A stretch of 64,000 nt of DNA from an uncultured Bacilli bacterium (GCA_934167485.1 CAKPKL010000002.1:83027-147026); one strand, 5' to 3'. Numbered from the stretch's first letter, positions 803 through 53,740 are shown. Made by a program: numbers and translations. The notes: a model not told the origin generated them from the letters alone.

Positions 803-2101
803 TTAATTTTGACACTCCGCAGATAAAATAAAACCAATTATTATAAAATAGATAGGAGTGGTTGTAAGCATATTTATATTAGAAAACCCTTGAATAGAAA
901 ATGCAACGAATGCAAAAAATAAAATTTTATTTTTTTGTTTTAATCCTTTAAAAAATGTTATAGCAAGTAAAATTATAAAAGGTATTACACCCAATATTCC
1001 ACTAGATACAAGAGCATTTAAATACATATTATGAGTATTATCAACTATAACATTACCTCTTAAAGCATTCTTACTTACAGCACTATTAGTTATAGAGAAT
1101 ACTACTGATTCTTTTGGTTTATTAGGATAAGCCAAATATAAATTATCATACCCTACACCAAGCACTGGATATTTTTTAACAATTTTTAAAGAATTCTTCC
1201 ATATATCAATTCTTCCGTTGTCTATAGATTTACAGTTTTTCTTAATATCACATATTTCACATCTAAATGTAGAATTATTTTTAATATTAACTTTAAAAAC
1301 ATCAACTAATAAATAATTTAGACTAAGTGTCATAACACAAGTAACAATTAAAATAAATAATAATTTTAAATATTTTTTTACTTTTATTTTATTAAAACAT
1401 AAAATCAATATTAATATATAAACAAGTACATAAGTTAAAAGAGGTCCTGTAGATTGACAATTTACTAAAGAAATAAAAAATAGAATAATTAAACTTATAT
1501 TTTTTTTGTTTTCAATTAAATATTCATAAGTAACTATACTTAAAACAGTTACTATATAACTTCCAAAGAAATTAGGATTTCCAAGTATACCACAAGCCAT
1601 ATTTGTATCTAATCCATATCCTATTATAAAACTAAAAGGCATATATATTTGAAATAAAGCATATATTGAATTTATTACTGAAATAATTATTAAAAGTTTA
1701 ATAAACCTAGAAATATCTAGTTTATTTCCATATCTAATCCAATTTACAACTAATAAAAAGTATGTAAATAAAGTTAAAAAACCACCATGTCTATAATCTT
1801 TACCAAATATTGATATATTTTTATTTATAGAAAACATGCATACTAAAATTCCTATTAAAATAAACAAAAAGAATATATAATCATAGTAATTTAATTTTTT
1901 TGTTTTTATTATATTATATACATAAGTGTATAGCAAGAAAGGTATGCTTATATATAGTATTATAGCTATATTTATAGAATCATAGTTATTAATTACATTA
2001 TAGTATTGTAAATAAAAAGATAATATTCTAAGAAATGGGATTATTAATAATATACAAAGTGTAAAAATTGTTAATACTTTTTTTGCATCTATGTTCTTCA
2101 T
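803..2101 (-). CDS. O-antigen ligase / Wzy_C-family polytopic membrane protein
   Basis: 432 aa with about 10-12 hydrophobic segments. Large loop carries RIDIWKNSLKI..PVLGVGYDN, typical of O-antigen ligase-like proteins. Confidence 0.6.
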   Translation of the reverse strand: MKNIDAKKVLTIFTLCILLIIPFLRILSFYLQYYNVINNYDSINIAIILYISIPFLLYTYVYNIIKTKKLNYYDYIFFLFILIGILVCMFSINKNISIFGKDYRHGGFLTLFTYFLLVVNWIRYGNKLDISRFIKLLIIISVINSIYALFQIYMPFSFIIGYGLDTNMACGILGNPNFFGSYIVTVLSIVTYEYLIENKKNISLIILFFISLVNCQSTGPLLTYVLVYILILILCFNKIKVKKYLKLLFILIVTCVMTLSLNYLLVDVFKVNIKNNSTFRCEICDIKKNCKSIDNGRIDIWKNSLKIVKKYPVLGVGYDNLYLAYPNKPKESVVFSITNSAVSKNALRGNVIVDNTHNMYLNALVSSGILGVIPFIILLAITFFKGLKQKNKILFFAFVAFSIQGFSNINMLTTTPIYFIIIGFILSAECQN

Positions 2102-3549: not shown

Positions 3550-3933
3550 TTAAGCTCCAGCAACTATTTCCATTGTTGATGTAGTTGCATTTTCACCAAC
3601 ATTACAACTAACTGATAAATTATTATTTGTAGTAGTAACTGTACAAGTAACATTATCATCTGTTGTTATTTCATCATCATTCCATTTAGCATTATCCATT
3701 TTGAATGCACTTTTTACTTTATCTAAAGTAGGTGCTGAACCGTCAGCCATAAATGCTGTACTATAAGCTAATTCAACAGATTGAATTACAAGTTCTGCAC
3801 TACGCTTTTTAGCATTATTTCTTGCATCCTCTATTATACCTAATACGATTGGTGTTGCAATTAATGCGATGATTGCTAAAATAACAATTACAGCTAATAA
3901 CTCTATCAAAGTAAAACCTTTTTTACTTTTCAT
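3550..3933 (-). CDS. type IV pilin / pseudopilin (prepilin N-terminal cleavage-methylation domain), Ser/Thr-rich C-terminus
   Basis: MKSKKG/FTLIELLAVIVILAIIALIATPIVL. Class-III signal with G-1, F+1 and E+5. 127 aa. Confidence 0.85.
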   Translation of the reverse strand: MKSKKGFTLIELLAVIVILAIIALIATPIVLGIIEDARNNAKKRSAELVIQSVELAYSTAFMADGSAPTLDKVKSAFKMDNAKWNDDEITTDDNVTCTVTTTNNNLSVSCNVGENATTSTMEIVAGA

Positions 3934-5380: not shown

Positions 5381-5457
5381 TGTAAATATTTATACAAGTT
5401 ATTGTTTTTTTGTGGCATAAAAATTTCTTGTATGATATAATTATGCTAGGTGATACT

Positions 5458-6339
5458 ATGAAAGATCTTTTTAAAATATTTTTTTTACTTTCTTTATTAG
5501 TAGTAGTATATATTTTTAGAGATAATATTTCTGGTTTTATAAATGATGAAATTATTTATAAAGGAAGTAATAAGGTCTTAACATATAATGAATACTATTT
5601 AAAAAATGATTTTGCTTTTGTACAAAATACAGATTCAAACTCAGCTAATAGTTATCAAGAGGTTTTAAATATGTTTTATAGTATTATAAATAGTGGAGAT
5701 GATAGTTATTCATTTTCTTGTAATTATGATAAATGCATAGATGATGTAAAAAAACTTATCGCAGAACAAAATATAATAGCCAATATTAATAATTTTGTTC
5801 ATCCATATAATTCTTTTTCTAGTATAAATATTGATGTAGAAACTAGTGGTAAAGTTACTGTAAAAATTAAAAAAGTTTATAGTGATGGAGAAATAACTTT
5901 TATTAATAAATATATTGATACTTTTATAAATAATAATTTAAATGATTCTATGAGCAATTATGATAAAATAAAAGTGTTTCATGATTTTGTTATAAACAAT
6001 ACAATATATGATGAAGCCAACACATTAAATTCATATACTGCTTATAATTTAATAACTACAGGTAAATCTATTTGTGGTGGATACAGTGATATCATGGCAA
6101 TATATCTTGATAAATTAGGAATAACTAATTATAAAATAACTTCAGAAAATCATATATGGAATTTAATTAATTTAGATGGAACTTGGTATCATTTAGATGC
6201 TACTTGGGATGATCCAGTTGCTAGCGATGGAAAACAATATTTAATACATAATTTCTTTATGATATCAACAGAACAATTACTTTCACTTGATCAAGTAGAA
6301 CACAATTATGATAAAAATATTTATTTAGAAGCAAATTAA
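5458..6339 (+). CDS. secreted/anchored transglutaminase-like cysteine protease domain protein
   Basis: Start moved to MKDLFKIFF (AGGTGA SD) from the track start at 5410. N-terminal TM. Core motif CGGYSD...HIWN...WYHLDATWDD (Cys-His-Asp transglutaminase core). Confidence 0.7.
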   Translation: MKDLFKIFFLLSLLVVVYIFRDNISGFINDEIIYKGSNKVLTYNEYYLKNDFAFVQNTDSNSANSYQEVLNMFYSIINSGDDSYSFSCNYDKCIDDVKKLIAEQNIIANINNFVHPYNSFSSINIDVETSGKVTVKIKKVYSDGEITFINKYIDTFINNNLNDSMSNYDKIKVFHDFVINNTIYDEANTLNSYTAYNLITTGKSICGGYSDIMAIYLDKLGITNYKITSENHIWNLINLDGTWYHLDATWDDPVASDGKQYLIHNFFMISTEQLLSLDQVEHNYDKNIYLEAN

Positions 6340-6367
6340 ATCTACACTTTTCGTGTAGATTTTTTTA
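6340..6367. terminator. hairpin terminator between convergent genes
   Basis: ATCTACAC-TTTTC-GTGTAGAT followed by TTTTTT on the plus strand. The minus-strand side has a weaker T tract. Confidence 0.6.
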
Positions 6368-6374
6368 ATCTAAT

Positions 6375-7835
6375 TTATTTATAATATTGAATTTCCAACT
6401 TACTAGATTTTACTGTTGTATTTACACTTATTATACTTGTATCTTTATTTATTGAAAGTTTTGGTAAATCTATTTTTTCTTCTATTGGAGTTTCTAAAAC
6501 ATAATCAACACTCAATGGATTTCCTGATAAATATTTTTCTTGAAGCCAAGAACTTAATCCATCTAAAGATGCAAAAAGGGTATTATCACTATTATCAAAT
6601 ATATACATTCGTCTAGAAGGAAGATCCACCATAAATCTAATAGATGGACGCAGTTTAGTTTGGGATATATTAATTTGAAAATAATTACAAATCAATAAGT
6701 CATACTTTTTTATTGCATCAAGGGATTCTATAAAATAAGCATAATCATAACTAGGATATTTATACCACTTTTCATCACCATTGAACTTTACATTTTTTAC
6801 CATTCTTATTACTTTTTTATTTCTAAAATCTATATAATCAGAATATTCTCCTACTTTTCTTAATGGCTCGTCTAAATATATATTTGTTATTGTCTCTTTA
6901 TATGGTTCATATTCAGTTGCTTTATCTCCATATTCTAATTGTATATCTTTTATTTTTATATTTAGATTTCCATAATCACCTTGCTCTCCTCCACCTTGCG
7001 TATTAACAGCAAAATTTGATGAAGTTGGTATTGTTATTTTATAAATTTCTCTCTCCCAAATTTTATAATCGCTTAATGTAGGAAAATTTCTATAATTTAT
7101 TCCATTTATAATATCCCTTAATCCTAAAGTTACTACTTTATTTCCAGATTCTTTATCAGCCATAAAATTTGCTTGAATTGTATAAACTCCCTCATTTAAA
7201 AACATCTTAGAATCGTACAATAAAACTGTGGCACCATACGCACCAACATTAGATGTTATAATTCCATTATCAATCGAATTATTTTCGGTAGCATCCATTT
7301 CATAATCAGCTTTTTTAAATGAATTTATTTTTGAAATATCAAATAAATTTTTTCCAGTTACTTTTATTGGTATTACATATTTTCCTACATTATTACATGC
7401 ATCTGATCCATAATTTAAACAATTATCGAGTGTTATTAGGTCTCCTACACTTTCTACCTCTACTGGTGTATCTGGGGTTGGTGTTCCATTCTGTATACTA
7501 TTTCCATATATTCTATAATTCTCTATTTCTGTTGTTTTATTGTTATCTATTAATATATTTGTTCCGTTTACTGTTATAAGTCCTGCATTATTGCATGTAA
7601 ATTTATTATTTTCTTTTATACAGTTATATCCTTTTATTATGATATTTTCAAATGTTACGCCATCTTCATTTACTATTATTCTTCCTCTATCTGGCATGTC
7701 TCCTTTTACATTTAATGTCTTACCATTATATGTGCATTTTCCATCATAACAATTATATATAATTTCTTCTTGTTCTTTTCCATCTAATACTAAATCTGAA
7801 TATTCTAACAAAGCTGCTTTCTCTATATTTTTCAT
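6375..7835 (-). CDS. C-terminal 486 aa of a large pilin-fusion protein; the frame is open upstream to 7985 and encodes a prepilin N-terminus, so the true gene is 6375..7999 interrupted at a poly-G tract
   Basis: No SD precedes the ATG at 7835. The same frame upstream reads VTYSKG/FTLIELLAVIVILAIIALIATPIVLDIIDSVKQSSTEAT. See the repeat at 7970-7980. Confidence 0.6.
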   Translation of the reverse strand: MKNIEKAALLEYSDLVLDGKEQEEIIYNCYDGKCTYNGKTLNVKGDMPDRGRIIVNEDGVTFENIIIKGYNCIKENNKFTCNNAGLITVNGTNILIDNNKTTEIENYRIYGNSIQNGTPTPDTPVEVESVGDLITLDNCLNYGSDACNNVGKYVIPIKVTGKNLFDISKINSFKKADYEMDATENNSIDNGIITSNVGAYGATVLLYDSKMFLNEGVYTIQANFMADKESGNKVVTLGLRDIINGINYRNFPTLSDYKIWEREIYKITIPTSSNFAVNTQGGGEQGDYGNLNIKIKDIQLEYGDKATEYEPYKETITNIYLDEPLRKVGEYSDYIDFRNKKVIRMVKNVKFNGDEKWYKYPSYDYAYFIESLDAIKKYDLLICNYFQINISQTKLRPSIRFMVDLPSRRMYIFDNSDNTLFASLDGLSSWLQEKYLSGNPLSVDYVLETPIEEKIDLPKLSINKDTSIISVNTTVKSSKLEIQYYK

Positions 7836-7966
7836 TGTTGCTTCTGTTGATGATTGTTTTACTGAATCTATTATATCTAATACTATTGGAGTTGCAATTA
7901 ATGCGATAATTGCGAGTATTACTATAACTGCTAAAAGTTCTATTAGGGTAAATCCTTTACTATAGG

Positions 7967-7999
7967 TTACCCCCCCCCCCAGGCCTTATTTTTATTCAT
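7967..7999 (-). other. orphaned translation start of the pilin-fusion gene (ATG plus 9 codons, then TAA)
   Basis: ATG at 7999-7997 with SD GAGGG 7 nt upstream. Reads MNKNKAWGGG-stop in the current tract length. Confidence 0.6.
7970..7980 (-). repeat. homopolymeric tract: 11 C on the plus strand, 11 G in the coding sense
   Basis: Counted directly. It is the only long G/C run I saw in this AT-rich window. Confidence 0.95.
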
Positions 8000-8033
8000 A
8001 TTTTTACCCTCTTTCTTATTTTTAACTATATTA

Positions 8034-8042
8034 ATTATAACA
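8034..8042 (-). promoter_or_regulatory. extended -10 element (TGTTATAAT) upstream of the pilin-fusion gene
   Basis: The reverse complement of 8034-8042 is TGTTATAAT, 35 nt upstream of the ATG at 7999. Confidence 0.4.
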
Positions 8043-8049
8043 AAAAGAG

Positions 8050-8072
8050 ATTGAATAATCAATCACTTTCAT
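8050..8072. repeat. 23-bp direct repeat, copy 1 (ATTGAATAATCAATCACTTTCAT)
   Basis: Exact match to 9641-9663. It supplies the last three codons (ESD) and the TGA stop of the 492-aa pilin-like gene. Confidence 0.9.
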
Positions 8073-9537
8073 TTACTTCAGCTGCAAAATTTAATAGAGT
8101 AATAGCTGTTGCATTTTCAGAACCACCCAATGCTTTTCCTATACTTCTTGAATATAATTTTGAATAAATTATTGAGCCATCATCATTCCTATAAAATGTT
8201 CTATAGTATATTGATTTGTTTAAATGCTGTAAATCAAAAATATACTTAAAAACATTATAATTTGAACTAAAGCCACCCCCATAGTTCTCATCTTTTGCTT
8301 CTAATATGATTGCTCCTTTTGTATTATAATTTAAACTACTATAATCACTAGAGTTACTCATTATTTCATTGAACAAAGATTCTTCAAATATTAATACACC
8401 ATATTTTTTAAATTCATTCAATGGCATATTACTGGAAGTTGCTTTTTCTTTATCCTTATTACCAACAAAAAATTCAAAATTTAAAGGAAATTCTGTAAAC
8501 ATTTGACATCCTACTCTATAAAATTTATCTAACATATCTGCATCATCTGCATTTGTAATTGAAGAATCTAAAGTTGGATTATTGCTTGCTATTACTTGAG
8601 CTTTACTAGTTAAATTAGTCATATTTATATCTTTTTCTTCCAATACACTGTTTATTTTTATTTTATTTGTTTCACTTAAATAAAATGGCCAATTTTCTTG
8701 ACTAGCTTCTCCATAGTTTATTAATGAAATTAATACTTTTTGATTCTTTTCTGTTATTTTATCTGAATATAATATTTCTTTTGAATAATCTATTAAATTA
8801 TAATTATATTCTGATGATACAACACTTTCAGAATCTTTTATTCCTTCTATCTTTGTTTTAAAATTTCCAAATAAATAAAATATCATACTATTTACATCAT
8901 ACTCAAATACAAAATAATTTCCTTTTTTTACTGCTTTATCTAATACTATATTTTGAGTTTCTGTTGTATTAGCATTATTATATGCATAATAATAATCATT
9001 TGTTATATTTATTTTTAAATCTGTATATTCATTATATGTGTCTTTATTTATATAAAAATTTATTTTTAAATTCTTATCATATGATAATGAAATATAATCT
9101 ATTTTTAACCCTTCACTCTTATCTAAATTTACTAAATTCATTTCTCTTTTTTCTGTTATATCTATATCTTTTGACTTACTAGTTGTTATATCTATTTTAT
9201 TTCCATCGTATCTTTCTACTATATAATTTTCAAATAATAATTTATAGTCACTTACTTGACTATTTTCTATTTTATACCACCCATTTATTGGTTTATTTTT
9301 TGCTTGTATATCTAATTCATTTACATAGTATATTCCATCTTCTATTTGTTTATTATTTGATAATGAATCTGCTATATAATATTCTACTGCTTTTGCATAA
9401 TTATCAGCACTTATTTTTACTGAAGATTTTTTACTATCATCTATTATGTCTAGTACTATTGGTGTTGCTATAAGTGCAATTATAGCTAGTATTACTATAA
9501 CTGCTAAAAGTTCTATTAATGTAAATCCTTTTTTCAT
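8059..9537 (-). CDS. large type IV pilin-like protein (prepilin N-terminus plus about 450-aa unknown domain)
   Basis: MKKG/FTLIELLAVIVILAIIALIATPIVLDIIDDSKKSS, 492 aa. Confidence 0.8.
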   Translation of the reverse strand: MKKGFTLIELLAVIVILAIIALIATPIVLDIIDDSKKSSVKISADNYAKAVEYYIADSLSNNKQIEDGIYYVNELDIQAKNKPINGWYKIENSQVSDYKLLFENYIVERYDGNKIDITTSKSKDIDITEKREMNLVNLDKSEGLKIDYISLSYDKNLKINFYINKDTYNEYTDLKINITNDYYYAYNNANTTETQNIVLDKAVKKGNYFVFEYDVNSMIFYLFGNFKTKIEGIKDSESVVSSEYNYNLIDYSKEILYSDKITEKNQKVLISLINYGEASQENWPFYLSETNKIKINSVLEEKDINMTNLTSKAQVIASNNPTLDSSITNADDADMLDKFYRVGCQMFTEFPLNFEFFVGNKDKEKATSSNMPLNEFKKYGVLIFEESLFNEIMSNSSDYSSLNYNTKGAIILEAKDENYGGGFSSNYNVFKYIFDLQHLNKSIYYRTFYRNDDGSIIYSKLYSRSIGKALGGSENATAITLLNFAAEVNESD

Positions 9538-9640
9538 ATTTTTCTTCTTTCTATTTATACTTTGGGGTAAGATTCCCTCACCTAGTATTATTTTTATCTC
9601 TACTTTCGTATATTAACTATGTTTATTATACTAAAAAAGG

Positions 9641-9663
9641 ATTGAATAATCAATCACTTTCAT
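9641..9663. repeat. 23-bp direct repeat, copy 2 (native 3' end of rbfA)
   Basis: Exact match to 8050-8072. It covers codons ESD plus the TGA of rbfA and 9 nt downstream. Confidence 0.9.
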
Positions 9664-26908: not shown

Positions 26909-27898
26909 TTATTTACTACACTTAACATCTTCGCCATAAAGGTTTGTACAAATATCTACACCACTTACAGTAGTTTTATAATATGTATTTGCTGAACAAT
27001 CATTATTTAAGAAACATGACATACAAGATGATATATTCTCTGCCTCACTTGAGTCAGCCACTTTTAAAATTACAAATTGTACAATAGATATTACAAAGAA
27101 TACCATAACAGAAGCTATTATTTTTTTAAGTAAGGAACTTTTTGCCTTCTTTATTTCATCTTCTTTAGAAGCTGCTAAAGCCTTTAATAAAGTAATCATG
27201 CTTGTTACTATTAAAACAATTGGAGTAGCAATCTTAAGTAAATTTACAAAGAAACTAGTAAGAGCTGGAGCCTCTTTTGGAATATCAAATGCATTTCCAC
27301 ACGTAACATATTGTAATTTATCAACATTACAATAACCATTCTCTTTATTCCAAACACATGCAAAATACTTATTATTTTCACAAGTTCCTTTATCATTAAA
27401 TTCTAAACAAGAGGATGGTGTTTCTTCTTCACTTTCTTCAGTTTGTTCAATTAAATCAAACACTACTGGAAAACCACTTTTTTGAATACTAAACTTCTTT
27501 TTTAATGAATCCGACATTTTATTTACATTTGTGTTATCTGAGACATAAAACCTATAAGTCCAAAAACCAAGCTTACCTTTTCTATGTACCAAAATGGCCT
27601 TTGATGGGCATTTTTTATTTTTTTCATAATAGCTCTGGCCACTAAATCCATTATAAGCTGAAACCCAATTTATTACATCTTCTGAATCTTTTTTACCCAC
27701 TACATCATTACCAGTAAGTATGGCATCTTCTGATTTTATTTTCCCATTCTTTGCCATATATAATCTAAATTTAATTTTAATATCTTTACTAGTAGTATTA
27801 TAAACACAATAATACTTTACTTTTGCCCTTATTGGCATTACAAAACACATTGAAGTTAAAAGTGTAACTAACAATATTAATAAGTATTTCTTTTTCAT
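26909..27898 (-). CDS. secreted Cys-rich protein with C-terminal VirB2-like two-TM module (orphan paralogue A)
   Basis: Signal peptide, then ...VTCGNAFDIP...IATPIVLIVTSMITLLKALAASKEDEIKKAKSSLLKKIIASVMVFFV...CMSCF. ATGA overlap with pduL. Confidence 0.7.
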   Translation of the reverse strand: MKKKYLLILLVTLLTSMCFVMPIRAKVKYYCVYNTTSKDIKIKFRLYMAKNGKIKSEDAILTGNDVVGKKDSEDVINWVSAYNGFSGQSYYEKNKKCPSKAILVHRKGKLGFWTYRFYVSDNTNVNKMSDSLKKKFSIQKSGFPVVFDLIEQTEESEEETPSSCLEFNDKGTCENNKYFACVWNKENGYCNVDKLQYVTCGNAFDIPKEAPALTSFFVNLLKIATPIVLIVTSMITLLKALAASKEDEIKKAKSSLLKKIIASVMVFFVISIVQFVILKVADSSEAENISSCMSCFLNNDCSANTYYKTTVSGVDICTNLYGEDVKCSK

Positions 27899-35811: not shown

Positions 35812-35854
35812 TGTAAAGAAAAAGAGTTATAAAACTATTTTAAGTTTATAACTC
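35812..35854 (-). terminator. rho-independent terminator after the 366-aa gene
   Basis: GAGTTATAAA-11 nt-TTTATAACTC followed by TTTTTCTTT. Confidence 0.6.
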
Positions 35855-36935
35855 CACAACCTTCTGCTACAAATCCAAATTTTTCTAGTACAAATACTAT
35901 TATAAATGGTATTATGAATGCTAAAGCAGCTGCTATCAATCTCTTAGCAAATCTACCTTGTGCTTTTTTCATTTCATCATCTTTATCAGAAGCAATTGCT
36001 TTTATAAAATCAATTATTCCAAGTATTATTACTAGTACTGGTAATATATATTTTACAATGTTTAAAATATTATTTATCCATCCTATTAAATTTTCAGAGA
36101 ACCCGCAAGTGGCACTATAATCTTTTGTTTTTATGTATTGTTCTTTTAATACTTTCATTCTCTCAATTGCATTTAAGCAACTATCTACACAACCATCATC
36201 AGAGCTTAAGCTTTGATTTTGCAAAATCGAATTACAAGTTTTTGTCATTATATTTGTATATTCTTCAACTTTTGAAAGTGCTTTACTTTTACAAACTGCT
36301 ACACTTGCATTTTTTTTATTAGAAGCACCATCTAAATAGTTGCCACATCCTAAATATTCTTTGTATGACCTAGCAACATCTGAAAACATAGACGTAAATT
36401 TATCACATGATGATACTAAATTTTCCTTAGAAATATCCCCACCATTATAATTTGCAACTTCACATGAAACATAAGTAGTGCCCCAAAACCACTTATTCCA
36501 AAAGTTTTCACTGCTTGGATCAAATTCATTTGCTGTTACATCATCTATTGTTTGAGTATCTAAAGAAGAGGAAAATAAACCTACATATGTATCTTTCGTT
36601 AATTCATTAAATGCAGGCCCTGTCAATAACCCGAAAAATAATGAACCAACTATAGGCAAATTTCTTTTTTCTATGCTACAAACTGTTAATGTCTTCCAAC
36701 AGTGTTGATCATCATTTAACATTGAAGGCTCTAAGAAATTACTAACACCAGAATATTTGCCCTCTAAATCTTCTTTATTATATGTCATACTGACATTACC
36801 ATTTTCATCTTTAGACGTATTTATTATTATATCTTGTCCATTATAGTTATATTTACATTCTCTAGCACTTATCTCACCACTAAATATAAATATTGAAATA
36901 AGCACAAATAATACCATTAATAAACTTTTTTTCAT
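35835..36935 (-). CDS. secreted Cys-rich protein with C-terminal VirB2-like two-TM module (orphan paralogue B)
   Basis: Signal peptide, then ...ATCGFSENLIGW...ILPVLVIILGIIDFIKAIASDKDDEMKKAQGRFAKRLIAAALAFIIPF... Confidence 0.7.
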   Translation of the reverse strand: MKKSLLMVLFVLISIFIFSGEISARECKYNYNGQDIIINTSKDENGNVSMTYNKEDLEGKYSGVSNFLEPSMLNDDQHCWKTLTVCSIEKRNLPIVGSLFFGLLTGPAFNELTKDTYVGLFSSSLDTQTIDDVTANEFDPSSENFWNKWFWGTTYVSCEVANYNGGDISKENLVSSCDKFTSMFSDVARSYKEYLGCGNYLDGASNKKNASVAVCKSKALSKVEEYTNIMTKTCNSILQNQSLSSDDGCVDSCLNAIERMKVLKEQYIKTKDYSATCGFSENLIGWINNILNIVKYILPVLVIILGIIDFIKAIASDKDDEMKKAQGRFAKRLIAAALAFIIPFIIVFVLEKFGFVAEGCGVINLK

Positions 36936-39061: not shown

Positions 39062-41134
39062 CTATTCGTCAAAGAAGAAATCATCAAAAAATTGGTCGTC
39101 CGTAATTCCCTTTTTATCCTTTTTCTCTTCTTCATAATGTTTATTTTCATCTATTGGTTCAATAAGTTCTGGTTTATTTTGAACTAAATTAGATTCAGCT
39201 TTTAATTTTTCTTGCCTTTCTTCTTCTTCAAGTTCCGCTATTTTAGCATCTATTCTTTTAACCAAATCATCTACATTGAATCCACCACCATTATTTGATG
39301 GTTTAGAAGGGGCAAAAGGATTAAATGGTGTATCTGAGCCTCCAAATGGCATAGGTGCTCTACCTCCAAATGGACTATCTTCTGAAGAGGAATTACCATT
39401 AAGCATTCCATTTATTTTTTCTTCTCTTTTCTTATTTACAAAATTCTTTAAATCAAATGTTTGAACAGGCGTTTTAGATCTTTGCGGATATGCTGCTTTA
39501 GGAAAATTATGTCCCCAATTCATTTGATAATTAGGAGTTAATTTTGTCTTAAATGGCATCGTTCTAAGTCTTAGTATTATTGTTTCCCATTGCTCTAATC
39601 TTTGTAAATCACTTACTGTTACAAGTGGTGTTGAAGATGTTTTTTCTTTTTCTTTTGATTTTACTTCTCCACACATTTTACTTATCTCTTCAAGAGCAGA
39701 TAATTCTGTACTTATTAGGTATACTATATTACCACAGTTACCTTTTATTGTTTCTCCATTTTCTTTACCATATACCTCATATAGTTGGGCAAAGTTTTGA
39801 ATTATAAATGTAAATCTTATATTTCTTGAACGAGCGGCTGTAACCATAGTTGTTACATCTTTAAGTGGTGGCATATTTGCAAACTCATCTAGGATAAAAT
39901 TAGTTCTATGATTTAACTTTCCACCTGATTCTTGCGCTACTGAAATAAGTGTTTCATAACATTGTTTTAAGAATATTGTTACTAATGAATGATAAGTAGT
40001 TTTTTCATCTTGTATAACAATAAATACTGCTGTTTTTTTTCTACCAATATCTCTCATATCAAAATCATTATTTGATAACATTTCTGATAGATTAGCACGT
40101 GATGCGAATAATTGTATTTTTTGCTTAAATACTGATAATATACTACCCTTTGTCTCACTTGGAGCCATTAAAGTAGATGAGGCTTTAGTATATGCTGTTC
40201 CACTTGGATCTTTATAACTAAAATAATCCTTTACATATGTTGTATTTGCAAGTTTTTCTTCCCCAACTGTAGTCATTAAACTAATACTATTTAAATTAAT
40301 TTCTTCTGGTTTTGCATCTTCAAACAAAGCACAAGCAAGACCTGCAAAATAGTCTGCAGAAGTATTTTCCCAGAACGGATCTTGACCTTTAGCTGATGGA
40401 TCATGAAGTATATTGGCAGCCAAATCCTCTAATAACTCTACTGATTTATCTATATTTCCATCTTTATATAACGAATAAGGTAAATACATAGGATTCCAAG
40501 CATTACCTTGTTGTGGATCACGGAAGTTTAAAAGTACTATATTGTATCCTAAACTCTTTAGATAGTTTGCTGTATTTTCATATATTTCACCTTTTGGGTC
40601 AGTAATTATCATAGATTCATCATGTTTTGCTAATAAATTTACCATAGGTAAAACTGTAGTTTGGGTTTTACCTGCACCTGTTGAACCTATTACTAAGTTG
40701 TGATATCCACCATTATCTACCCAAACTTTCTTAGGAGTCATTTTAAGTGGTATACCTGCTGCATCTGCTTTTGGTGACAATGGGTCTACTGGTTTTACAT
40801 CCAACCCATTTTCTATTTCTTTATCTTTAGCCCATCTTGCATAATTTTTTTCCTTCTTTTGACCTATAGTTAAACCAATACCTACATCGTCTTCTTTTTC
40901 TAAAAAGACAGATTTAACTCCGGCAAAAGCAGCTACAATACCAGCTATAAAAAATACCATTGTAGCAGCAAGATTTTTTAAAGAAAATCCTAAAAACAAA
41001 TTAATAGTAAACGATTCACCAGCTATAAATTCTGATACGTTTGCTACTGCGAGTGCTACAACACATAGCCAAACAAATGCAAATATACAGAATATTGTAA
41101 CGTCCTTTGCTTCAGCTTTAAATTTTAATTTCAT
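39062..41134 (-). CDS. T4SS coupling protein (VirD4/TraG family) with acidic-aromatic C-terminal tail
   Basis: Two N-terminal TM segments, Walker A VIGSTGAGKTQ, FILDEFANM Walker B region, 690 aa. Confidence 0.85.
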   Translation of the reverse strand: MKLKFKAEAKDVTIFCIFAFVWLCVVALAVANVSEFIAGESFTINLFLGFSLKNLAATMVFFIAGIVAAFAGVKSVFLEKEDDVGIGLTIGQKKEKNYARWAKDKEIENGLDVKPVDPLSPKADAAGIPLKMTPKKVWVDNGGYHNLVIGSTGAGKTQTTVLPMVNLLAKHDESMIITDPKGEIYENTANYLKSLGYNIVLLNFRDPQQGNAWNPMYLPYSLYKDGNIDKSVELLEDLAANILHDPSAKGQDPFWENTSADYFAGLACALFEDAKPEEINLNSISLMTTVGEEKLANTTYVKDYFSYKDPSGTAYTKASSTLMAPSETKGSILSVFKQKIQLFASRANLSEMLSNNDFDMRDIGRKKTAVFIVIQDEKTTYHSLVTIFLKQCYETLISVAQESGGKLNHRTNFILDEFANMPPLKDVTTMVTAARSRNIRFTFIIQNFAQLYEVYGKENGETIKGNCGNIVYLISTELSALEEISKMCGEVKSKEKEKTSSTPLVTVSDLQRLEQWETIILRLRTMPFKTKLTPNYQMNWGHNFPKAAYPQRSKTPVQTFDLKNFVNKKREEKINGMLNGNSSSEDSPFGGRAPMPFGGSDTPFNPFAPSKPSNNGGGFNVDDLVKRIDAKIAELEEEERQEKLKAESNLVQNKPELIEPIDENKHYEEEKKDKKGITDDQFFDDFFFDE

Positions 41135-42146: not shown

Positions 42147-43577
42147 TTAATATCCAAATATTTTTTGTCTTAAATTCAATTTGCCTTGCATTTGAAAAAT
42201 TGTATATCTAGATTGTTCCCAAGCCGTAACACGTGTACCTGATGCATGTTCTCCACCTGCATTTAAGCACTTTTCTACAAACTCTTGATGAGTTGAATAT
42301 ATTGTTTTTACGCCAGCACGATCTGGATCCATATAATAATATCCTCCAGCTCCGGAACTACCATATTCATGTTTTCCTAAGCTTGAATATATCATTTGCA
42401 TTCCAGCATATGTTCCAGGTAGTCCTATACCATTTAAATCTGCACCTGCAGCCTTTCTTGATTCATATGTTGACTTAATAAAATTAGCCATTGAACCACC
42501 TTCTTGATATCTTGCAAGTACTCCAGCATATCCTCTTACACCATCTGCAACAGATGAATATCTAGGACCAGCAGAACATCCCTTACCATTAGTTATTCCT
42601 ATACCCCAAAAGTTATTTGTAGTACCACAATTTTTAAAAGCCTGTTCCGTTCCAGCCGTAACTACTGCAAGTTCTGGGTTAACTCCGCTAGATATTGCAG
42701 CATCATATATTTCTTTAGCTTTTGCTGCAAAATTACTACAAAAACTAGCATTATTTGACCTATTACAATAATCATTCATTTTAGCAACAAATTCTTCTTT
42801 AGTTAAATTTGTAGTTGTTAATGAAAACCCATCAACAGATGATATTATAGGTCTTGGATCATCTGCTTTTACATAATTTAGTGGATTTAATTCTGATCCT
42901 TTACTTCTGCTAGTACGGATTTCAAAATGAAGATGTGGTCCCGTTGAGGAACCAGAATGTCCAAGTTTACCTATAACTTGTCCTCTTTCTACTGCATCAC
43001 CAGCCATTACTGTTATTGAATCTTTAGCTAAATGAGCATAATAAGTATAGTTACCATCTGGGTGTTGTATAATTACATAATTGCCATATCCTCCACCATC
43101 TGTATTTCCATAATATCCATTATCATTAAAAGATGTTTGAGATTTATTAGCAGGATATACTACTACTCCTGAATTTGAAGCTACTACATTATCATAATTA
43201 GCAGCACCTGTACTACTTCCAATATCTAAACCTTTATGTGCTGAATTTCTAAAACTCTCTTCACTATTAAAATCAGAAGTAATCTTAATTGTACTAGGAC
43301 TACCTTTAGCAAATAATTTACCATTTTCCTCAGTAGTCTCTAAACTTCCTATTGGCCACCAATATGCTATATTAATAGCTTCTTTTACTTCTACTACAGT
43401 TTCTTCTTGTTCTCCAGCTAATTCTTCATATTGGTCTTTAGCATCATATATCTCTCTCATCATATCTCTAACCCCTCTTTTATTTTCAGGGTTTACATAA
43501 TCATAAGCACTTACACTATATACAAATGAAAATAATGTTATAAAAACAACAATAAAATTTATATATTTTTTTAACAT
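42147..43577 (-). CDS. secreted bifunctional peptidoglycan hydrolase: M23 peptidase plus glucosaminidase/FlgJ-like domain
   Basis: Start at MLKKYINF (AGAGGTGA SD). M23 motifs HKGLDIG and GPHLHFEIR. C-terminal ...GTEQAF...NNFWGIG. Confidence 0.8.
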   Translation of the reverse strand: MLKKYINFIVVFITLFSFVYSVSAYDYVNPENKRGVRDMMREIYDAKDQYEELAGEQEETVVEVKEAINIAYWWPIGSLETTEENGKLFAKGSPSTIKITSDFNSEESFRNSAHKGLDIGSSTGAANYDNVVASNSGVVVYPANKSQTSFNDNGYYGNTDGGGYGNYVIIQHPDGNYTYYAHLAKDSITVMAGDAVERGQVIGKLGHSGSSTGPHLHFEIRTSRSKGSELNPLNYVKADDPRPIISSVDGFSLTTTNLTKEEFVAKMNDYCNRSNNASFCSNFAAKAKEIYDAAISSGVNPELAVVTAGTEQAFKNCGTTNNFWGIGITNGKGCSAGPRYSSVADGVRGYAGVLARYQEGGSMANFIKSTYESRKAAGADLNGIGLPGTYAGMQMIYSSLGKHEYGSSGAGGYYYMDPDRAGVKTIYSTHQEFVEKCLNAGGEHASGTRVTAWEQSRYTIFQMQGKLNLRQKIFGY

Positions 43578-43595
43578 TATATCACCTCTTAACAA

Positions 43596-44258: not shown

Positions 44259-46157
44259 CTAATCCTTTTTTTCATATACAACAACACTATAAACTTTGTA
44301 GTAATCATATAGAGATGTCATATTTGTTCCTGCTGGATCCATTATATAAATATCTCCTGTCGATGAATCAACATAATCAAGAGCAACATAATGATGAGCA
44401 GATTTTCTACCTTTTTTACCCACATGCAAAATGAAATAATACTTATTTGAATCATAACTTGAAATTTTACTTGCCAATGATGATTTACTCATCCCTACTG
44501 TAGAAAACTCTGTTTGTTTTATGAAAAAAGGCGCTAAATTTTTAACACTTCCCCAGTATAATCCACCACCACTTGTAAAACTAAATTTTTTAGCAGCTAT
44601 TCCTGGATCTAAAGAATCAGTTGTAATCGCAGTACCACTTCTAGCTATTTGAATTGATAAGGATGTGACTAAACATCCAATACTACACATAGTTCCACCT
44701 GGATTACCTATTTTTTTATTACTCCAGCTTTGTTTACATTGTGTCCAACTTCTAAAACTACCAACAGCAGCAGTGCCACTATTATTTATAGGTGGATTAT
44801 CTTCTTCTATTGATGTATCTTCATCTAAAAAATATTTTCTCTCTAAGAATTGTTTTAAAAACTCATCATATTTATTACGATCTAATAAATAGCCTAAATC
44901 TTCGGTTTGATATGTTTCTCCTTCTGCACATGTTATACTTTGAATACCTATTTCTGAATCCTTTAAAACATGTTCTTGTGTCCTAACACCAGATTCATTT
45001 TGACAATACTCATTTACTTGCTTAGATACCATATGTTGTGCGAGAAGTTCCATATCGTGTTGACTTTTAGTACTACTTAACTTATAATTACTCCAATCAT
45101 AATCATAAGCAAATTCAGCAATTGGTTTTTTCCTTGCTGTTTTTGCTCTATCTTCTTTAGTTAGATTGGAACTAAATATAACATTCATGTCATCAGATTG
45201 CATATTTAGTGTAGACATTAAAAGTGGTAAATCAAGATAAACTCCATAATCATCTCTATATGTAGTATATAAGTTATACATTTTAAAGAAAAAATCATAT
45301 ACCATATTCTTATCATAATCTTTACCATACTCACTAATAGTTGGATAAAAATCCTCTAATGAATCCAAATCAGCTTCGTTATATTTTCTTCTTAAATATT
45401 TTGTAGTTTTTGTTGAATCTAGTTTTAAACTCTTAAATTTATTAGAATTTGGTTCATATATATCTACATAAGCATATAAATTTGTATTATCTATATTATA
45501 ATTTATAGCCTCTTCTCCAGATTTATCTTCATCTACTGCATTTACATCATTTGATTTTTTATTAATTTTACCTTCAGCATCCTTTTCTGAAATAGAATCA
45601 GCATGTCCTAATTTTATTGAATTCAAAAAAATCATAGATGAAGGAATTATCATAGCAAGTATCATAAATGGAATTAATGAACCTAACAAAGCTATTGATA
45701 GATATTTAACAACTTGGTAAGTCATCTTAAAGCTTGAACCTCCACCATCAGATGTTTGCTCTTCTACTTGTTTTTGACCTCCACCCATTAATTTATCAAG
45801 TGCATTGAGTGCAAAATTTTTCTTTTTTGCATTTGATATTACCTTTTGACCTAACTCACTATTAACAGCTTTATCTGCTAGTGGTTTTGGTACACCAAGA
45901 GATTGTACTCCCTTAGATGCCAGTTCATTAGTTGCTTTGCTATTACTTGTATTAGGTCTTTTTCTTGGCATATTTAATTTTTGTTCCGCTGAAGAACTAT
46001 TAGAAGGACTATTATTTAAAGTGCTATTTCTATTATTATTTAAATTTTTATTATATGATTTTACCTTTTCTTCTAATCTTTTAGCTTCATTTTGGGCACT
46101 TAAATTCTTAACATAATTTTCTTTATTATTTTTTAAGAATACATCTTTATTATTCAT
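44259..46157 (-). CDS. bitopic protein with C-terminal papain-fold (C39-like/CHAP-like) cysteine peptidase domain
   Basis: Hydrophilic N-terminus, TM around residues 150-180. C-terminal Q..W...GGTMCSIGCLVTS ... HHYVALDYV ... IMDP. Confidence 0.55.
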   Translation of the reverse strand: MNNKDVFLKNNKENYVKNLSAQNEAKRLEEKVKSYNKNLNNNRNSTLNNSPSNSSSAEQKLNMPRKRPNTSNSKATNELASKGVQSLGVPKPLADKAVNSELGQKVISNAKKKNFALNALDKLMGGGQKQVEEQTSDGGGSSFKMTYQVVKYLSIALLGSLIPFMILAMIIPSSMIFLNSIKLGHADSISEKDAEGKINKKSNDVNAVDEDKSGEEAINYNIDNTNLYAYVDIYEPNSNKFKSLKLDSTKTTKYLRRKYNEADLDSLEDFYPTISEYGKDYDKNMVYDFFFKMYNLYTTYRDDYGVYLDLPLLMSTLNMQSDDMNVIFSSNLTKEDRAKTARKKPIAEFAYDYDWSNYKLSSTKSQHDMELLAQHMVSKQVNEYCQNESGVRTQEHVLKDSEIGIQSITCAEGETYQTEDLGYLLDRNKYDEFLKQFLERKYFLDEDTSIEEDNPPINNSGTAAVGSFRSWTQCKQSWSNKKIGNPGGTMCSIGCLVTSLSIQIARSGTAITTDSLDPGIAAKKFSFTSGGGLYWGSVKNLAPFFIKQTEFSTVGMSKSSLASKISSYDSNKYYFILHVGKKGRKSAHHYVALDYVDSSTGDIYIMDPAGTNMTSLYDYYKVYSVVVYEKKD

Positions 46158-46175: not shown

Positions 46176-47960
46176 CTATAGTCCTCCACCACTACCAAAT
46201 GAATCTAATTCTTCATCTGATACTATTACATTTATTCTCATTCTTCTACTACCACAAACAAATAATGCTTCACCTTGTTGATATTGTTTTATACTTTCTT
46301 TTTCATTATCATTTAAATCTATTAATTTTGCTAAATCATCAACAGCTTGTTTTTTTAGTCCCATTACCAAATAATAAGAAGCATTATCAAATATTGCTTT
46401 CCCTTGAGTAATTACACTAGGATCACTAAAATCTGTTGGTTGCTGAGTAATTATTATTGTTCCTGTATTGTACTTTCTTGCACGTCTTTGAATCTGTGCT
46501 AAAAAGTCTGCTCCTAAAGTATTTCCTCCACTAAGTAATACATGAGCCTCATCTACCATCATTACAGTATTAATAGAACTATTTAAAGTAAGTCCCCAAG
46601 CATATTTAAGTATATTAAAGAATAAAGCATTTCTAATATTTGTATCAGCATTCATTATTTCTCTTATATTGAATACAACAAAATTACTTTGTGGTTTTAT
46701 TGTTGTATGACCATCGAAATAATACTTAAGTTCTCTTACTATCGGTCTAATTTTTATCTCTAATTTTTCCAAAACATCTTTTTCTTGTGTCTTTTCTGGC
46801 ATAGATAAAATCCTACCCTTTATAGTAGCATATACATCTTTAAACGTTGGATAATCTTCTGAATGGTATTTAGTAAAATCAGAATTAAAATCTATACCAA
46901 ATCTTTTATATGTTTCTTGTACTACCTCACTAAACATATTTACGACATCTTCACCAATACTAGGATCATAATACTTTAAAAATGCTTTTATTGTTTGTAA
47001 AGTTCTAGTAAACACTGTATATCCAAGTCCTTGTCTCATTTCATCTTCATCAGCATCTACAATAACTTCAAGTGGATTTATCATACCAAAATCTCCACCT
47101 TTACCCAAACTAATGAAATCTCCATCAAAGGCATTAGTCATCTCTTCTAATTCTCCTTCTGGATCTATTACAACAACTTGATTATTATTTCTTATATGAC
47201 TTCTTAAAAGTAATTTAGCAGCTGTAGATTTACCACTACCACTTGTACCCAAAATAATCATATTGGCATTATTTCTATTATGTTCTTTTTTAATTTGATA
47301 TAAAAATTGATTAAATAATATTACACCACCTGAAAAATCTATTCCAAGTAAAGTAGATAAACCAGGGTCTTTAATACTATCAAATATAAACGGATACATA
47401 GCAGCCATAGTTGGAGATGGAATTGGTGTACCAATTCTATCTTCAATATCTTGTTTACCATATATAGGTATAATAGATTTCAAAACTTTATCTTGTTCAA
47501 ATCTTAAAGGTACAGCTCTCATTTCCATAGCTTCCAAATAATTTTTTACTTGTAATTTTTTAGAATCTAATTCTTCTTGAGTATCTGCAGTTATCATAAC
47601 ATGCATTTGAAAATCATATATTTTAGATTGACTAGCAGCAAGTTCACTAATAAACATCTCTAAAGATTCATAATCTTGACGAATTCTTTCTTGAATTGTT
47701 TTATCTTTTTCTTCTTGATATCTTTGTTTTAAATCCGCTAATTCTTTATTTAACATTTTACTTATACTACTAAAAGGAAGTGGTATATGTTTTATAACCA
47801 CTTTTATACCCGACATACTAGTTAAGCTACTTAAATACCCAGGATAAATAAATTTTGGAAAAGAAATTATAGTTAAAATACAAGCATATTTATCACTTAT
47901 AATAAATTGATTAGGTTTAAACTCCAATCCTTTTGGAGCAATTTGACTTCTTATATCCAT
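46176..47960 (-). CDS. VirB4-family T4SS ATPase, middle plus ATPase domains (C-terminal part of a split VirB4)
   Basis: Walker A ILGTSGSGKST, MMVDEAH Walker B, 594 aa. Confidence 0.85.
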   Translation of the reverse strand: MDIRSQIAPKGLEFKPNQFIISDKYACILTIISFPKFIYPGYLSSLTSMSGIKVVIKHIPLPFSSISKMLNKELADLKQRYQEEKDKTIQERIRQDYESLEMFISELAASQSKIYDFQMHVMITADTQEELDSKKLQVKNYLEAMEMRAVPLRFEQDKVLKSIIPIYGKQDIEDRIGTPIPSPTMAAMYPFIFDSIKDPGLSTLLGIDFSGGVILFNQFLYQIKKEHNRNNANMIILGTSGSGKSTAAKLLLRSHIRNNNQVVVIDPEGELEEMTNAFDGDFISLGKGGDFGMINPLEVIVDADEDEMRQGLGYTVFTRTLQTIKAFLKYYDPSIGEDVVNMFSEVVQETYKRFGIDFNSDFTKYHSEDYPTFKDVYATIKGRILSMPEKTQEKDVLEKLEIKIRPIVRELKYYFDGHTTIKPQSNFVVFNIREIMNADTNIRNALFFNILKYAWGLTLNSSINTVMMVDEAHVLLSGGNTLGADFLAQIQRRARKYNTGTIIITQQPTDFSDPSVITQGKAIFDNASYYLVMGLKKQAVDDLAKLIDLNDNEKESIKQYQQGEALFVCGSRRMRINVIVSDEELDSFGSGGGL

Positions 47961-51304: not shown

Positions 51305-51685
51305 CTATTCAGCATCTGCAATTTGACATGCTTTTTCTGAAGCTTCACCACTTATAAAGCAGTTAAAACAATTCATTATATTTGGATCACTACTAGAAAC
51401 AAATCTAATAATAATTTGAACAACTTGAATTACAAAGAAAACAATAACAGCTGCTATTAATCTCTTTATAAACATTTGTTGACCTTTCTTTATTTCATCT
51501 TCTTTAGCTGCTATTACAGCTTTTCCTAGATCTAACATACCAAATATTATTAATAAAATTGGTACAGCAATCTTAATAATTAAAATTATTGTAGATACAA
51601 GATAAGGGAAAGTACCAGAAAAAACTAAACTAGTTCCTCCACAAGTATATTCAGATTGCATTAAAACCTTTGCCGCTAATATCAT
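51305..51685 (-). CDS. VirB2/TrbC-like two-TM small protein, paralogue C (no signal peptide; own promoter and terminator)
   Basis: 126 aa: ..YTCGG..IAVPILLIIFGMLDLGKAVIAAKEDEIKKGQQMFIKRLIAAVIVFFV...CFNCF. AGGAGG SD. Confidence 0.7.
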   Translation of the reverse strand: MILAAKVLMQSEYTCGGTSLVFSGTFPYLVSTIILIIKIAVPILLIIFGMLDLGKAVIAAKEDEIKKGQQMFIKRLIAAVIVFFVIQVVQIIIRFVSSSDPNIMNCFNCFISGEASEKACQIADAE

Positions 51686-51709
51686 TCTATTCCTCCTAAC
51701 ACTAAATTA

Positions 51710-51738
51710 ATTATATATTTTTTTTATTTAAAAGTCAA
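51710..51738 (-). promoter_or_regulatory. near-consensus sigma-A promoter for paralogue C
   Basis: TTGACT (51738-33), 17-nt spacer, TATAAT (51715-10). Confidence 0.6.
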
Positions 51739-51748
51739 TAATCTTGAA

Positions 51749-52873
51749 TTATTTTAATTTTCCAATTACATAAGGATCATTAGAAGTACCCTTACCAGTT
51801 GTATATAACTCATTTCCATCTATGTATATAACTATATTATATGATGCATTAGTATTAGCAGTTTCAAATGTAGTTAACTCATTTGAAACATATATAACAT
51901 CATAAGAAGTATCAGATGATGAATTTAATGTCCAAGTTGATAAAGGCATATAATACAAGTAATTATAATTATTACAAGAACGTGCTGCTGTAGAATTACA
52001 TTCTGGATCCAAACTTGCCATAAAGTAATCTGATACGTTCACCAATGAGATAACCTCATTCTCTAATATTTCATTACAATCAATTTCTCTACTAATTGAA
52101 TAATCAGAAGCACTTCTTTTACCTATACAAGCATTGTAAGAAACAATGTGTTGTCTTGCATCTTTTTTTATTTTTTTGACGTTTAAATAATCTTCCATAA
52201 GATATGATCTTATCTTACTATCTTTATATATATTTTTACCTACAGTTCTATTAATTTCAGTATTAAATTTGCTATCCCACATTCTAGAATTTAATTCTGT
52301 TTCTGATCTAACTAACTTTACTATACCATTAGAATCTATACTCATGATTCTATATTCTTTTCCATAAAAATTAATATAATTTTTAGGCTTTTCACCTTTA
52401 AATATGTATTCATTGCCTACTTGATATAGCCCAGCCTCTGTAGTTGTTAAACTCTCCATTAATTTATCATTTAAATGAACTGTTGAATATTTATCACATT
52501 CCAAATTAGGAATATAATTCAAATATCCACCTTCATTAGCTTCTACAACTTGACCATTTCTTCTTACAGTAACATTTCCTTTACAAGTTGTATCATCTAA
52601 TAATTTTTCTGTAGATTTAATAAAACCTCCATCAACTAATTTTTTTATACTAATTACTTCAGTTTCTGATTCCTTAGTTAAATCTATTTTTTCACTTTTT
52701 ATGTAATTTTTAGCTGCTGCAATCATTTTAGTCTCATACTTTTCATAAGACATCTTTCTATTGCCACATGCTTGAATGATTGCTAAAAAGACTAATAAAA
52801 CTACAGGTATTAAAATAATTCCCCCAACAGTTATTAAGAACTTTTTATCCATTTTTTTTAATGCATCTATCAT
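51749..52873 (-). CDS. N-terminally anchored secreted protein of unknown function
   Basis: 374 aa, single TM near the N-terminus, Cys-containing extracellular region. Confidence 0.55.
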   Translation of the reverse strand: MIDALKKMDKKFLITVGGIILIPVVLLVFLAIIQACGNRKMSYEKYETKMIAAAKNYIKSEKIDLTKESETEVISIKKLVDGGFIKSTEKLLDDTTCKGNVTVRRNGQVVEANEGGYLNYIPNLECDKYSTVHLNDKLMESLTTTEAGLYQVGNEYIFKGEKPKNYINFYGKEYRIMSIDSNGIVKLVRSETELNSRMWDSKFNTEINRTVGKNIYKDSKIRSYLMEDYLNVKKIKKDARQHIVSYNACIGKRSASDYSISREIDCNEILENEVISLVNVSDYFMASLDPECNSTAARSCNNYNYLYYMPLSTWTLNSSSDTSYDVIYVSNELTTFETANTNASYNIVIYIDGNELYTTGKGTSNDPYVIGKLK

Positions 52874-52887
52874 AAGTTCCTCCTATA

Positions 52888-53319: not shown

Positions 53320-53321
53320 GT

Positions 53322-53732: not shown

Positions 53733-53740
53733 TTTATCAC

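Follow-up and report, generated by a model that had tools for sequence, protein, structure and literature searches.

A run of 11 G residues (G11) lies just downstream of the start codon of a gene encoding a modular type IV prepilin, in a 64-kb stretch of DNA from an uncultured Bacilli bacterium (here called the window). The tract falls in the part of the gene encoding the cleaved leader, and these data make it likely that G11 is a slipped-strand (simple-sequence-repeat) contingency switch. The anatomy of the gene, the arithmetic of its reading frames, a polymorphism of tract length among near-identical strains, the purifying selection that acts on OFF alleles and the recurrence of the leader cassette on other genes were established here. 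All coordinates are positions in the window, and the switch gene and its parts are on the minus strand.

Anatomy of the switch gene and its product

The promoter of the switch gene occupies 8034-8062 and consists of a -35 hexamer (TTGATT, 8062-8057), a 17-nt spacer and an extended -10 element (TGTTATAAT, 8042-8034). It was the sole site between 6200 and 9800 with a 10/12 match to the consensus and an upstream TG; the stop codon of the upstream paralogue falls within its -35, and the promoter block was kept in at least 12 alleles of other samples. A Shine-Dalgarno (SD) sequence, GAGGG (8007-8011), is spaced 7 nt from the ATG at 7999-7997, and the other alleles likewise have GAGGG or TAGGG. Both the GAGGG and the extended -10 at 8034-8042 had been picked out in an earlier inspection of the DNA (the sequence-only reading) and both were confirmed.

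Between the ATG and the G11 tract (7980-7970) are 16 nt, AATAAAAATAAGGCCT, and a TAA (7969-7967) directly follows the tract. At this length, the leader open reading frame (ORF, 7967-7999) reads MNKNKAWGGG and stops. The body of the gene (6375-7970) is in the -1 frame relative to the ATG at 7999 and comprises 531 codons and a stop codon; it begins from the GTA at 7970 as VTYSKG/FTLIELLAVIVILAIIALIATPIV..., where the slash marks the predicted cleavage site, and is without a stop until 6377-6375. The truncated leader and the displaced frame open to 6375 had been described in the same way by the sequence-only reading and were found again on the sequence. In the cleavage motif, KG/FTLIE, Gly(-1) is encoded at 7955-7953, Phe(+1) at 7952-7950 and Glu(+5) at 7940-7938. 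The tract was rebuilt in silico at other lengths, and G9, G12 and G15 yielded ORFs of 540, 541 and 542 aa, respectively, while all other lengths yielded a peptide of 10-14 aa only; the earlier prediction that 12 G or 9 G would restore the frame was thereby reproduced.

Alternative starts were sought in the body frame. No ATG, GTG or TTG is present in this frame upstream of an internal ATG at 7833-7835, where automatic gene callers begin, and nothing SD-like precedes this internal ATG, as the earlier inspection had also found. The sole non-ATG candidate in the body frame, a CTG at 7982-7980, was considered unlikely, since its distance from the SD is ~24 nt and its use as a start is not conserved. 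Some paralogues from rabbit metagenome-assembled genomes (MAGs) have a TTG at this position, also without a usable SD.

Apart from G11, no G or C run in the window (~25 % G+C) exceeds 5 nt; with this single G run, a G-quadruplex was set aside as an explanation. The number of C runs of at least 11 expected by base composition in 64 kb is 1.5e-4, which bears out the previous judgement that such a run is improbable by chance.

In the proposed mechanism, the gene would be transcribed from the strong extended -10 promoter and translated from the ATG at 7999. With 9, 12 or 15 G, translation would read through a Trp-Gly(n) leader into VTYSKG/FTLIE... and generate a prepilin of ~540 aa, from which prepilin peptidase would remove the leader including the Gly run. 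As the Gly run is in the removed leader, in-frame changes of length would leave the mature protein unaltered. With 10 or 11 G, translation would end after 10-12 codons and, there being no alternative start, the gene would be OFF. Replication slippage in the tract would shift lineages between ON and OFF; the window allele is predicted to be OFF, and would need to gain one G or lose two G for ON. We infer that such change is frequent and reversible within a population, and that the product is processed, displayed in a pilus and has a binding function.

The reconstructed product passed the Pfam N_methyl model (30.1 bits against a cut-off of 21.2), and a profile of the family matched MshA, PilE1, PilA and geopilin in the PDB, over the N-terminal helix only. 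An AlphaFold model of the product, generated with a 26-sequence alignment, had a mean predicted local distance difference test (pLDDT) score of 66.9. In the model, 7560-7955 encodes a pilin module in which an alpha1 helix (residues 9-62) lies on a beta-sheet (residues 70-136), with block pLDDT of 75-87, and the N-terminal part of the product is thus modelled as a pilin fold. A further ~390-400 residues, encoded by 6378-7450, are predicted to form grafted beta-rich modules. The modelled architecture is that of a modular pilin, a pilin module with extra C-terminal modules, and the N_methyl match, the PDB profile matches and the model agree with the prepilin with a large extra region that had been read from the sequence.

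Searches of Pfam and PHROGs identified no family for the body of the product. Foldseek comparison with the PDB returned weak matches to beta-sandwiches of the carbohydrate-binding module (CBM) families CBM4/6/16/22 and to the Tuc2009 baseplate tripod, with E-values of 3e-4 to 3e-3 and target template-modelling scores of 0.5-0.6. A phage tail-fibre origin, suggested by a YGNSxQNGTPTPD motif, was dropped; no PHROG family was found, and the weak match to the Tuc2009 tripod was the one exception.

Alignments of homologues identified conserved joints (YRIYGNSIQNGTPTPD.PVE.ESVG, PIKVTGKNLF, YEPYKETITNIYLDEPLR and a C-terminal ..ELEYYR), and between these joints lie hypervariable cassettes that are shuffled in differing combinations among alleles. 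Behind the conserved pilin module, several proteins share identical cassettes at the C-terminus or in the middle (P0005, P0013 and P0021; P0006, P0009 and P0018; and P0008 and P0016), and the pilin-fusion bodies are, as judged from these alignments, recombining mosaics. The product is probably a filament-displayed adhesin with exchangeable lectin-like beta-sandwich modules.

The public gene calls of at least nine relatives (P0001, P0002 and P0017-P0022 among them) begin at the internal Met (MKNIEK...) and have no Pfam domain; the resulting truncated proteins of 437-497 aa are without the pilin motif. The frameshift and the internal-Met gene calls have therefore hidden the pilin nature of this family in public databases.

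Tract length among strains and the condition of OFF alleles

Strains with the same locus were retrieved via the conserved neighbour RbfA. The first (L076) matches the window at 99.914 % identity across 9,338 nt; it has six single-nucleotide polymorphisms (SNPs) and a single indel, which is the loss of two G at 7970-7971. Its tract is G9 and its switch gene is in frame, being called as 540 aa with N_methyl. The second (L078) is 99.927 % identical over 6,826 nt and has G11, no indel and five SNPs. L078 carries all five of the L076 SNPs in the common span, and over the shared 6.8 kb these two strains differ in the tract only. Three more divergent strains have G10 (L079, 98.7 % identity to the window, and L001, 98.9 %) or G11 (L003, 98.6 %). 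Comparison of related strains had been proposed as a check on the sequence-only reading, and it yielded G9 (540 aa), G10 and G11 at the same locus at 98.6-99.9 % identity. The G tract was the sole homopolymer that varied in length across the same-locus comparisons; T8 runs were invariant, and the other indels were compensated patches within divergent coding segments.

The same or near-identical sequence was present in human gut metagenome assemblies, Hadza samples included. A scan of the GTDB representative genomes with a protein pattern confirmed no relative; relatives were instead found, at 63 loci, with a DNA pattern back-translated from the invariant N-terminus of the pilin. The relatives are uncultured MAGs of human, rabbit, mouse and rumen, labelled Bacilli, Tenericutes, Erysipelotrichaceae or Firmicutes. 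Sixteen alleles with the leader M(N/R/S)KN(K/N)(A/T)W-Gn-VTY.KG/F were assembled from varied samples, assemblers and genomic contexts, two of which were contributed by a scan of Joint Genome Institute metagenomes. Several samples hold two or three such genes (e.g. L070a, L070b and L071). The tract was G9 in three alleles and G15 in one, all in frame, and G10 in five and G11 in seven, all out of frame, and its flanks were conserved throughout.

These lengths bear on whether G11 is a homopolymer miscall, with a true tract in frame (G9 or G12) and the gene ON. Homopolymers of at least 10 are error-prone, some of the related contigs have only 5-6x coverage, and contigs often break near the leader (L002, L067, L074, L075 and L079). 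Against an error of sequencing or assembly, G10 or G11 was recovered in at least 12 independent assemblies from several projects, generated with SPAdes and MEGAHIT and including contigs of ~33x, and the observed range was 9 to 15. The well-covered contigs themselves differed (G9 at 76x, G11 at 33.8x and G10 at 33.5x) and low-coverage miscalls cannot therefore explain the spread of lengths. The tract is interior to long contigs and its flanks match perfectly, which excludes the two-colour poly-G artefact of read ends. The independent L078 assembly, which differs from the window by only five SNPs and no indel over 6.8 kb, reproduced G11, and the tract would still be polymorphic even if the call in the window were wrong. 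A miscall was judged to be very unlikely.

Twelve alleles, that of the window among them, have the gene out of frame, and the gene sits in an accessory segment missing from related species. Both would be expected of a plain pseudogene, that is, a formerly functional pilin fusion in decay since a frameshift within a chance G run. However, no second lesion was detected in the OFF alleles, although stop codons are frequent by composition in these genomes: the body sequence obtained from the 12 out-of-frame alleles contained no stop codon, and the nine alleles with the whole gene on a contig (eight OFF and L069) were complete, at 482-542 aa with a conserved C-terminus. The L069 gene call (MLGGGV...) was rejected as evidence of an expressed, ON gene; it starts at an ATG 5 nt before the tract, without an SD. 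The ratio of non-synonymous to synonymous substitution (dN/dS; Nei-Gojobori, first 205 codons, all pairs) was 0.11-0.39, and this included OFF/OFF pairs with dS up to 0.39. In-frame alleles occur in near-identical strains, and the uninterrupted G run has been kept across species despite the strong AT bias of these 25 % GC genomes, which argues for selection for the tract. These data indicate that the OFF alleles are not pseudogenes and are under purifying selection; the additional disabling mutations in relatives by which the sequence-only reading would have recognized a pseudogene were absent, and such decay is extremely improbable.

Homopolymers of at least 9 cause transcriptional slippage in bacteria, which is best documented for A/T runs, and the alleles were also considered in this light. 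If RNA polymerase or the ribosome slipped on the G run, there would be low constitutive expression at any length and G11 would be the designed state. Such recoding would be in keeping with G11 as the commonest length, with the 0-frame TAA directly after G11 and with the formal -1 slippery heptamer G GGG GGG, and it would also explain purifying selection on OFF alleles. The alleles do not share a fixed length or direction of shift, however: G11 needs -1, G10 (5/16) needs +1, and G9 and G15 need none. L069, with G11 and one base fewer upstream, needs the opposite shift, and the rabbit-MAG paralogues at G9 or G10 are in yet another phase. Polymorphism of length at the DNA level between near-identical strains is the signature of mutation. 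Recoding as the sole explanation was considered unlikely; it is compatible with a mutational switch, and slippage may make the OFF state leaky.

Several points weigh against the contingency switch and the adhesin role proposed for its product. No G12 allele was found among the 16 and G11 was the commonest (7/16), a pattern which could be a mutational equilibrium or could reflect a role of G11 itself; L069 also has G11, though its upstream spacing differs by one base. The ratio of 4 ON to 12 OFF is biased, as alleles were partly chosen via truncated or full-length gene calls. The lengths are from short-read metagenome assemblies, some of 5-6x (L001 and L072), in which a count may be off by one. 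The adhesin role rests on the model of pLDDT 66.9 and on Foldseek matches at E 3e-4 to 3e-3, and filament assembly is assumed, with no gene for PilB/ComGA, PilC/ComGB or prepilin peptidase within the window.

The leader cassette and neighbouring genes

The window and the related loci, a total of 520,638 nt, were examined for G/C runs. There were 40 runs of length 5, seven of 6, none of 7, two of 8, six of 9, five of 10 and five of 11, a bimodal distribution with one group at 5-6 and another at 8-11. Of the 18 runs of at least 8, 15 are preceded by the motif AATAA-NNCYT (mostly AATAAGGCYT) and 16 are at the 5' ends of genes for pilin fusions or other membrane-anchored surface proteins. The occurrence of 15 of 18 tracts after one conserved motif suggests a portable cassette. 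From these comparisons the switch is one copy of a leader cassette that is reused on many surface-protein genes of the lineage, and most genes bearing the cassette appear to be OFF at any time. Leaders unlike the AATAA-NNCYT type were found in the rabbit-MAG genes L023 and L039, and at the promoter tract of L032. Two G8 runs are off the leader pattern (L050, plus strand, 4552, and L019, minus strand, 476); one is in a G+C-richer coding stretch and the other beside a terminator-like inverted repeat.

The contigs of L002, L067, L074, L075 and L079 start or end within ~100 nt of the promoter-leader-tract block. Such breaks are in keeping with repetition of the cassette or with failure of assemblers to cross the tract.

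Four arrangements other than that of the window were found. In L009, L048, L051, L070b and L077, the same ATG and tract are followed, 55-140 nt further downstream, by a second SD with an MKKKGF start, and the pilin probably escapes tract control in this arrangement. In L032 (URIY01000012, UMGS1045; minus strand, ~3634), TTGACA-N9-G10-TATAAT, with both hexamers perfect and a 19-nt spacer, is upstream of a 624-aa pilin fusion, and this looks like phase variation of the promoter-spacer type in a related MAG of the human gut. The orthologues L039 and L023, from two rabbit MAGs, differ in tract and state, one with an in-frame G9 and the other with an out-of-frame G10. In the rabbit MAG CANRCZ01, the same ATG...AAATAAGGCTT-G9/10 leader is located before non-pilin proteins of 275-371 aa with a transmembrane (TM) anchor, at L006 (three tandem copies), L055, L057 and L064; all six copies are out of frame. 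The C-terminal domain of these TM-anchored proteins (GDYVAYDAGxW...LKGWRVL...HAGQPECYYHG...GFRPVV) is also found in a pilin fusion of the same genome.

Pilin-fusion paralogues of the sister-species MAG JAZTXB01 (L004, L012, L021, L024 and L047) have T7, T8 and T15 runs between a TTG -35 and TATAAT. These poly-T runs take the place of poly-G leaders and may represent another kind of homopolymer switch acting on this gene family.

The gene upstream of the switch gene (8059-9537, minus strand) encodes a paralogous pilin fusion of 492 aa with its own start, MKKG/FTLIE. It is preceded by a decayed copy of the same promoter-leader cassette (9575-9653, minus strand) comprising TTGATT-17-TATAAT (9653-9625) and, at the position of the tract (9582-9575), GGTGAGGG where relatives show G10; the leader ATG is deleted. 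In other alleles the tract is interrupted (SCGVE) or absent (MKKGF). Interrupted and tract-free leaders, including that of the neighbour in the window, are as expected for gain and loss of the switch.

Both large pilin-fusion genes are in an accessory segment (6344-9658, minus strand) that is missing from syntenic loci of two related species (L046 and L059), in which only 46-56 nt separate rbfA from the next gene. An exact 22-nt repeat, GAAAGTGATTGATTATTCAATC, is found at 9661-9640 and 8070-8049 and extends into the promoter block. Inside this repeat lie the ends of both rbfA and the upstream paralogue (...ESD-stop), and these shared ends reaching the promoter block suggest tandem insertion of gene cassettes through recombination there.

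A small pilin of 127 aa (3550-3933, minus strand; MKSKKG/FTLIE) has the same N-terminus as the large fusions. It matched the TIGR02532 domain model (36.1 against a cut-off of 16.3), with a ComGC-like match below cut-off, and is a candidate for the major pilin of the filament that would display the large fusions. Genes for PilB/ComGA, PilC/ComGB and prepilin peptidase were not seen in the 64-kb window, and the CpaF/VirB11-like ATPase encoded there belongs to a Tad/type IV secretion system (T4SS) cluster. Near the pilin genes and adjoining der is a gene for a Wzy_C/O-antigen-ligase-like membrane protein (803-2101, minus strand; Pfam E 7.8e-22), which could be relevant to glycosylation of the pilin or the surface. 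A terminator-like hairpin with a 10-bp stem (6338-6362) is located 3' of the stop codon of the switch gene; since a T-run follows it on the plus strand, the hairpin may chiefly terminate the convergent gene at 5410-6339. Scans of the window against Rfam, at the gathering threshold, and for tRNA genes gave no matches.

The sequence-only reading had referred to spore-forming Bacillota. The window does contain a GPR spore-protease equivalog (340 bits against a cut-off of 120), and the label rests on this single GPR endopeptidase gene; the lineage is known as uncultured gut MAGs and is not a characterised spore-former.

A large conjugation/T4SS and Tad-like cluster occupies 39,000-63,700 on the minus strand. 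It includes a VirD4-like coupling protein of the CD1115 family (39062-41134; 297 bits against a cut-off of 250), a VirB4-like ATPase (46176-47960) with a best match, below cut-off, to a Mycoplasma integrative conjugative element family, and the CpaF/VirB11-like ATPase (58837-60012). TadB/C-like (57136-58823) and CpaB-like (60020-60877) proteins, an M23 peptidase (42147-43595) and a CHAP-like protein (44259-46157), all on the minus strand, were assigned by eye only. The Tad-like part resembles the pilus cluster of the uncultured order TANB77 (PMC11680825), a resemblance taken as a lead only. Four small tandem paralogues of 126-147 aa on the minus strand carry an A(Q/A)KEDEIKKGQQMFIKRL(I/L)AA motif followed by a TM segment, and the motif is also C-terminal in two Cys-rich secreted proteins of the window. 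Proteins with this motif are encoded at 51305-54184, 26909-27898 and 35835-36935 (minus strand), and the two that were examined had no match in NCBIfam.

Known systems and wider meaning

Homopolymer contingency loci are textbook in Neisseria, Haemophilus, Campylobacter, Helicobacter and the mycoplasmas. Promoter poly-A in Mycoplasma hyorhinis vlp, coding poly-A in Mycoplasma hominis vaa and promoter-spacer tracts in Neisseria opc and porA all provide each gene of a surface-protein family with a homopolymer of its own, in the spacer of the promoter or early in the coding sequence. Promoter-spacer tracts are also present in relatives of the window (G10 in L032; T7, T8 and T15 in the JAZTXB01 paralogues). 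The targets of the Mollicute, opc and porA systems are, unlike that in the window, lipoproteins or outer-membrane proteins, and the Mollicute tracts are A/T and not G.

In pilC1 and pilC2 of Neisseria gonorrhoeae and Neisseria meningitidis, as in the window, a G homopolymer of comparable length lies early in the coding sequence of a gene for type IV pilus adhesion, frameshifting would control ON and OFF, and there are several paralogues, each with its own tract. Work by Jonsson and colleagues in 1991 reportedly placed the pilC tract in the part coding for the signal peptide, where in-frame changes spare the mature protein. The genic tract of this pilus gene is G(9-20) (PMC5953494). PilC/PilY1 is not a pilin, however; its signal peptide is of the Sec type and minor pilins link it to the tip, whereas the window product is itself predicted to be a prepilin with a class III leader and has no sequence similarity to PilC. 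The hosts also differ, one being a 25 % GC uncultured gut Bacillota and the other a diderm pathogen.

In the AT-rich genomes of Campylobacter jejuni and Helicobacter, as in the lineage of the window, many genes have G/C tracts of ~8-11 nt. They mostly specify surface structures and are often OFF in genome sequences, and the G/C run lengths are bimodal. The phasome concept is that of PhasomeIt (PMC6321876). In Campylobacter the targets are mainly glycosylation and flagellar modification and the tracts are without a shared leader, unlike those described here.

Modular pilins of the same general design are known from Streptococcus sanguinis, in which PilB carries a von Willebrand factor A module and PilC a lectin module (Raynaud et al. 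2021; PMC8179133). These are, like the window product, pilins with a class III signal peptide and a bulky module in a monoderm, proposed to act at the filament tip for adhesion, and modular pilins are widespread and architecturally diverse. The modules encoded in the window differ in having no Pfam domain, a weak CBM-type resemblance and a mosaic structure that is hypervariable between alleles, and the text of PMC8179133 consulted here describes no phase-variable tract in the S. sanguinis PilB and PilC genes. A full-text literature search found no report linking poly-G tracts to pilins in Bacillota, though its coverage was incomplete and it is weak evidence of novelty. The mechanism is classic; what is new is the host lineage, the class III leader of a modular pilin as the target and the shared, apparently portable cassette.

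To our knowledge, there has been hardly any search for homopolymer contingency loci among uncultured commensals, the dominant members of gut metagenomes. If the switch is confirmed, the locus would show that a widespread gut lineage, found in industrialised human and Hadza samples and with relatives in rabbit, mouse and rumen, stochastically varies the adhesins on its filaments. The conserved cassette provides a defined query for MAG collections. Metagenome assemblies tend to break at the cassette, and strain-tracking and gene-presence analyses will misjudge the expression state of such genes.

A broader proposal, held tentatively, is that the lineage runs a genome-wide phasome based on a portable promoter-SD-ATG-AATAA-NNCYT-poly-G cassette, recombined before modular pilins with swappable lectin-like heads and before other anchored surface proteins. 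If this were true, cassettes would be acquired and relocated, and would become locked or decay, within short evolutionary times; the neighbour in the window would be a decayed copy, and a contingency system in the style of Neisseria and Mycoplasma would operate in reduced-genome commensal gut Bacillota with a spore protease gene. Cells would display differing combinations of filament-tip adhesins. Such a phasome might govern attachment to host glycans, partner cells or phage-exposed surfaces.

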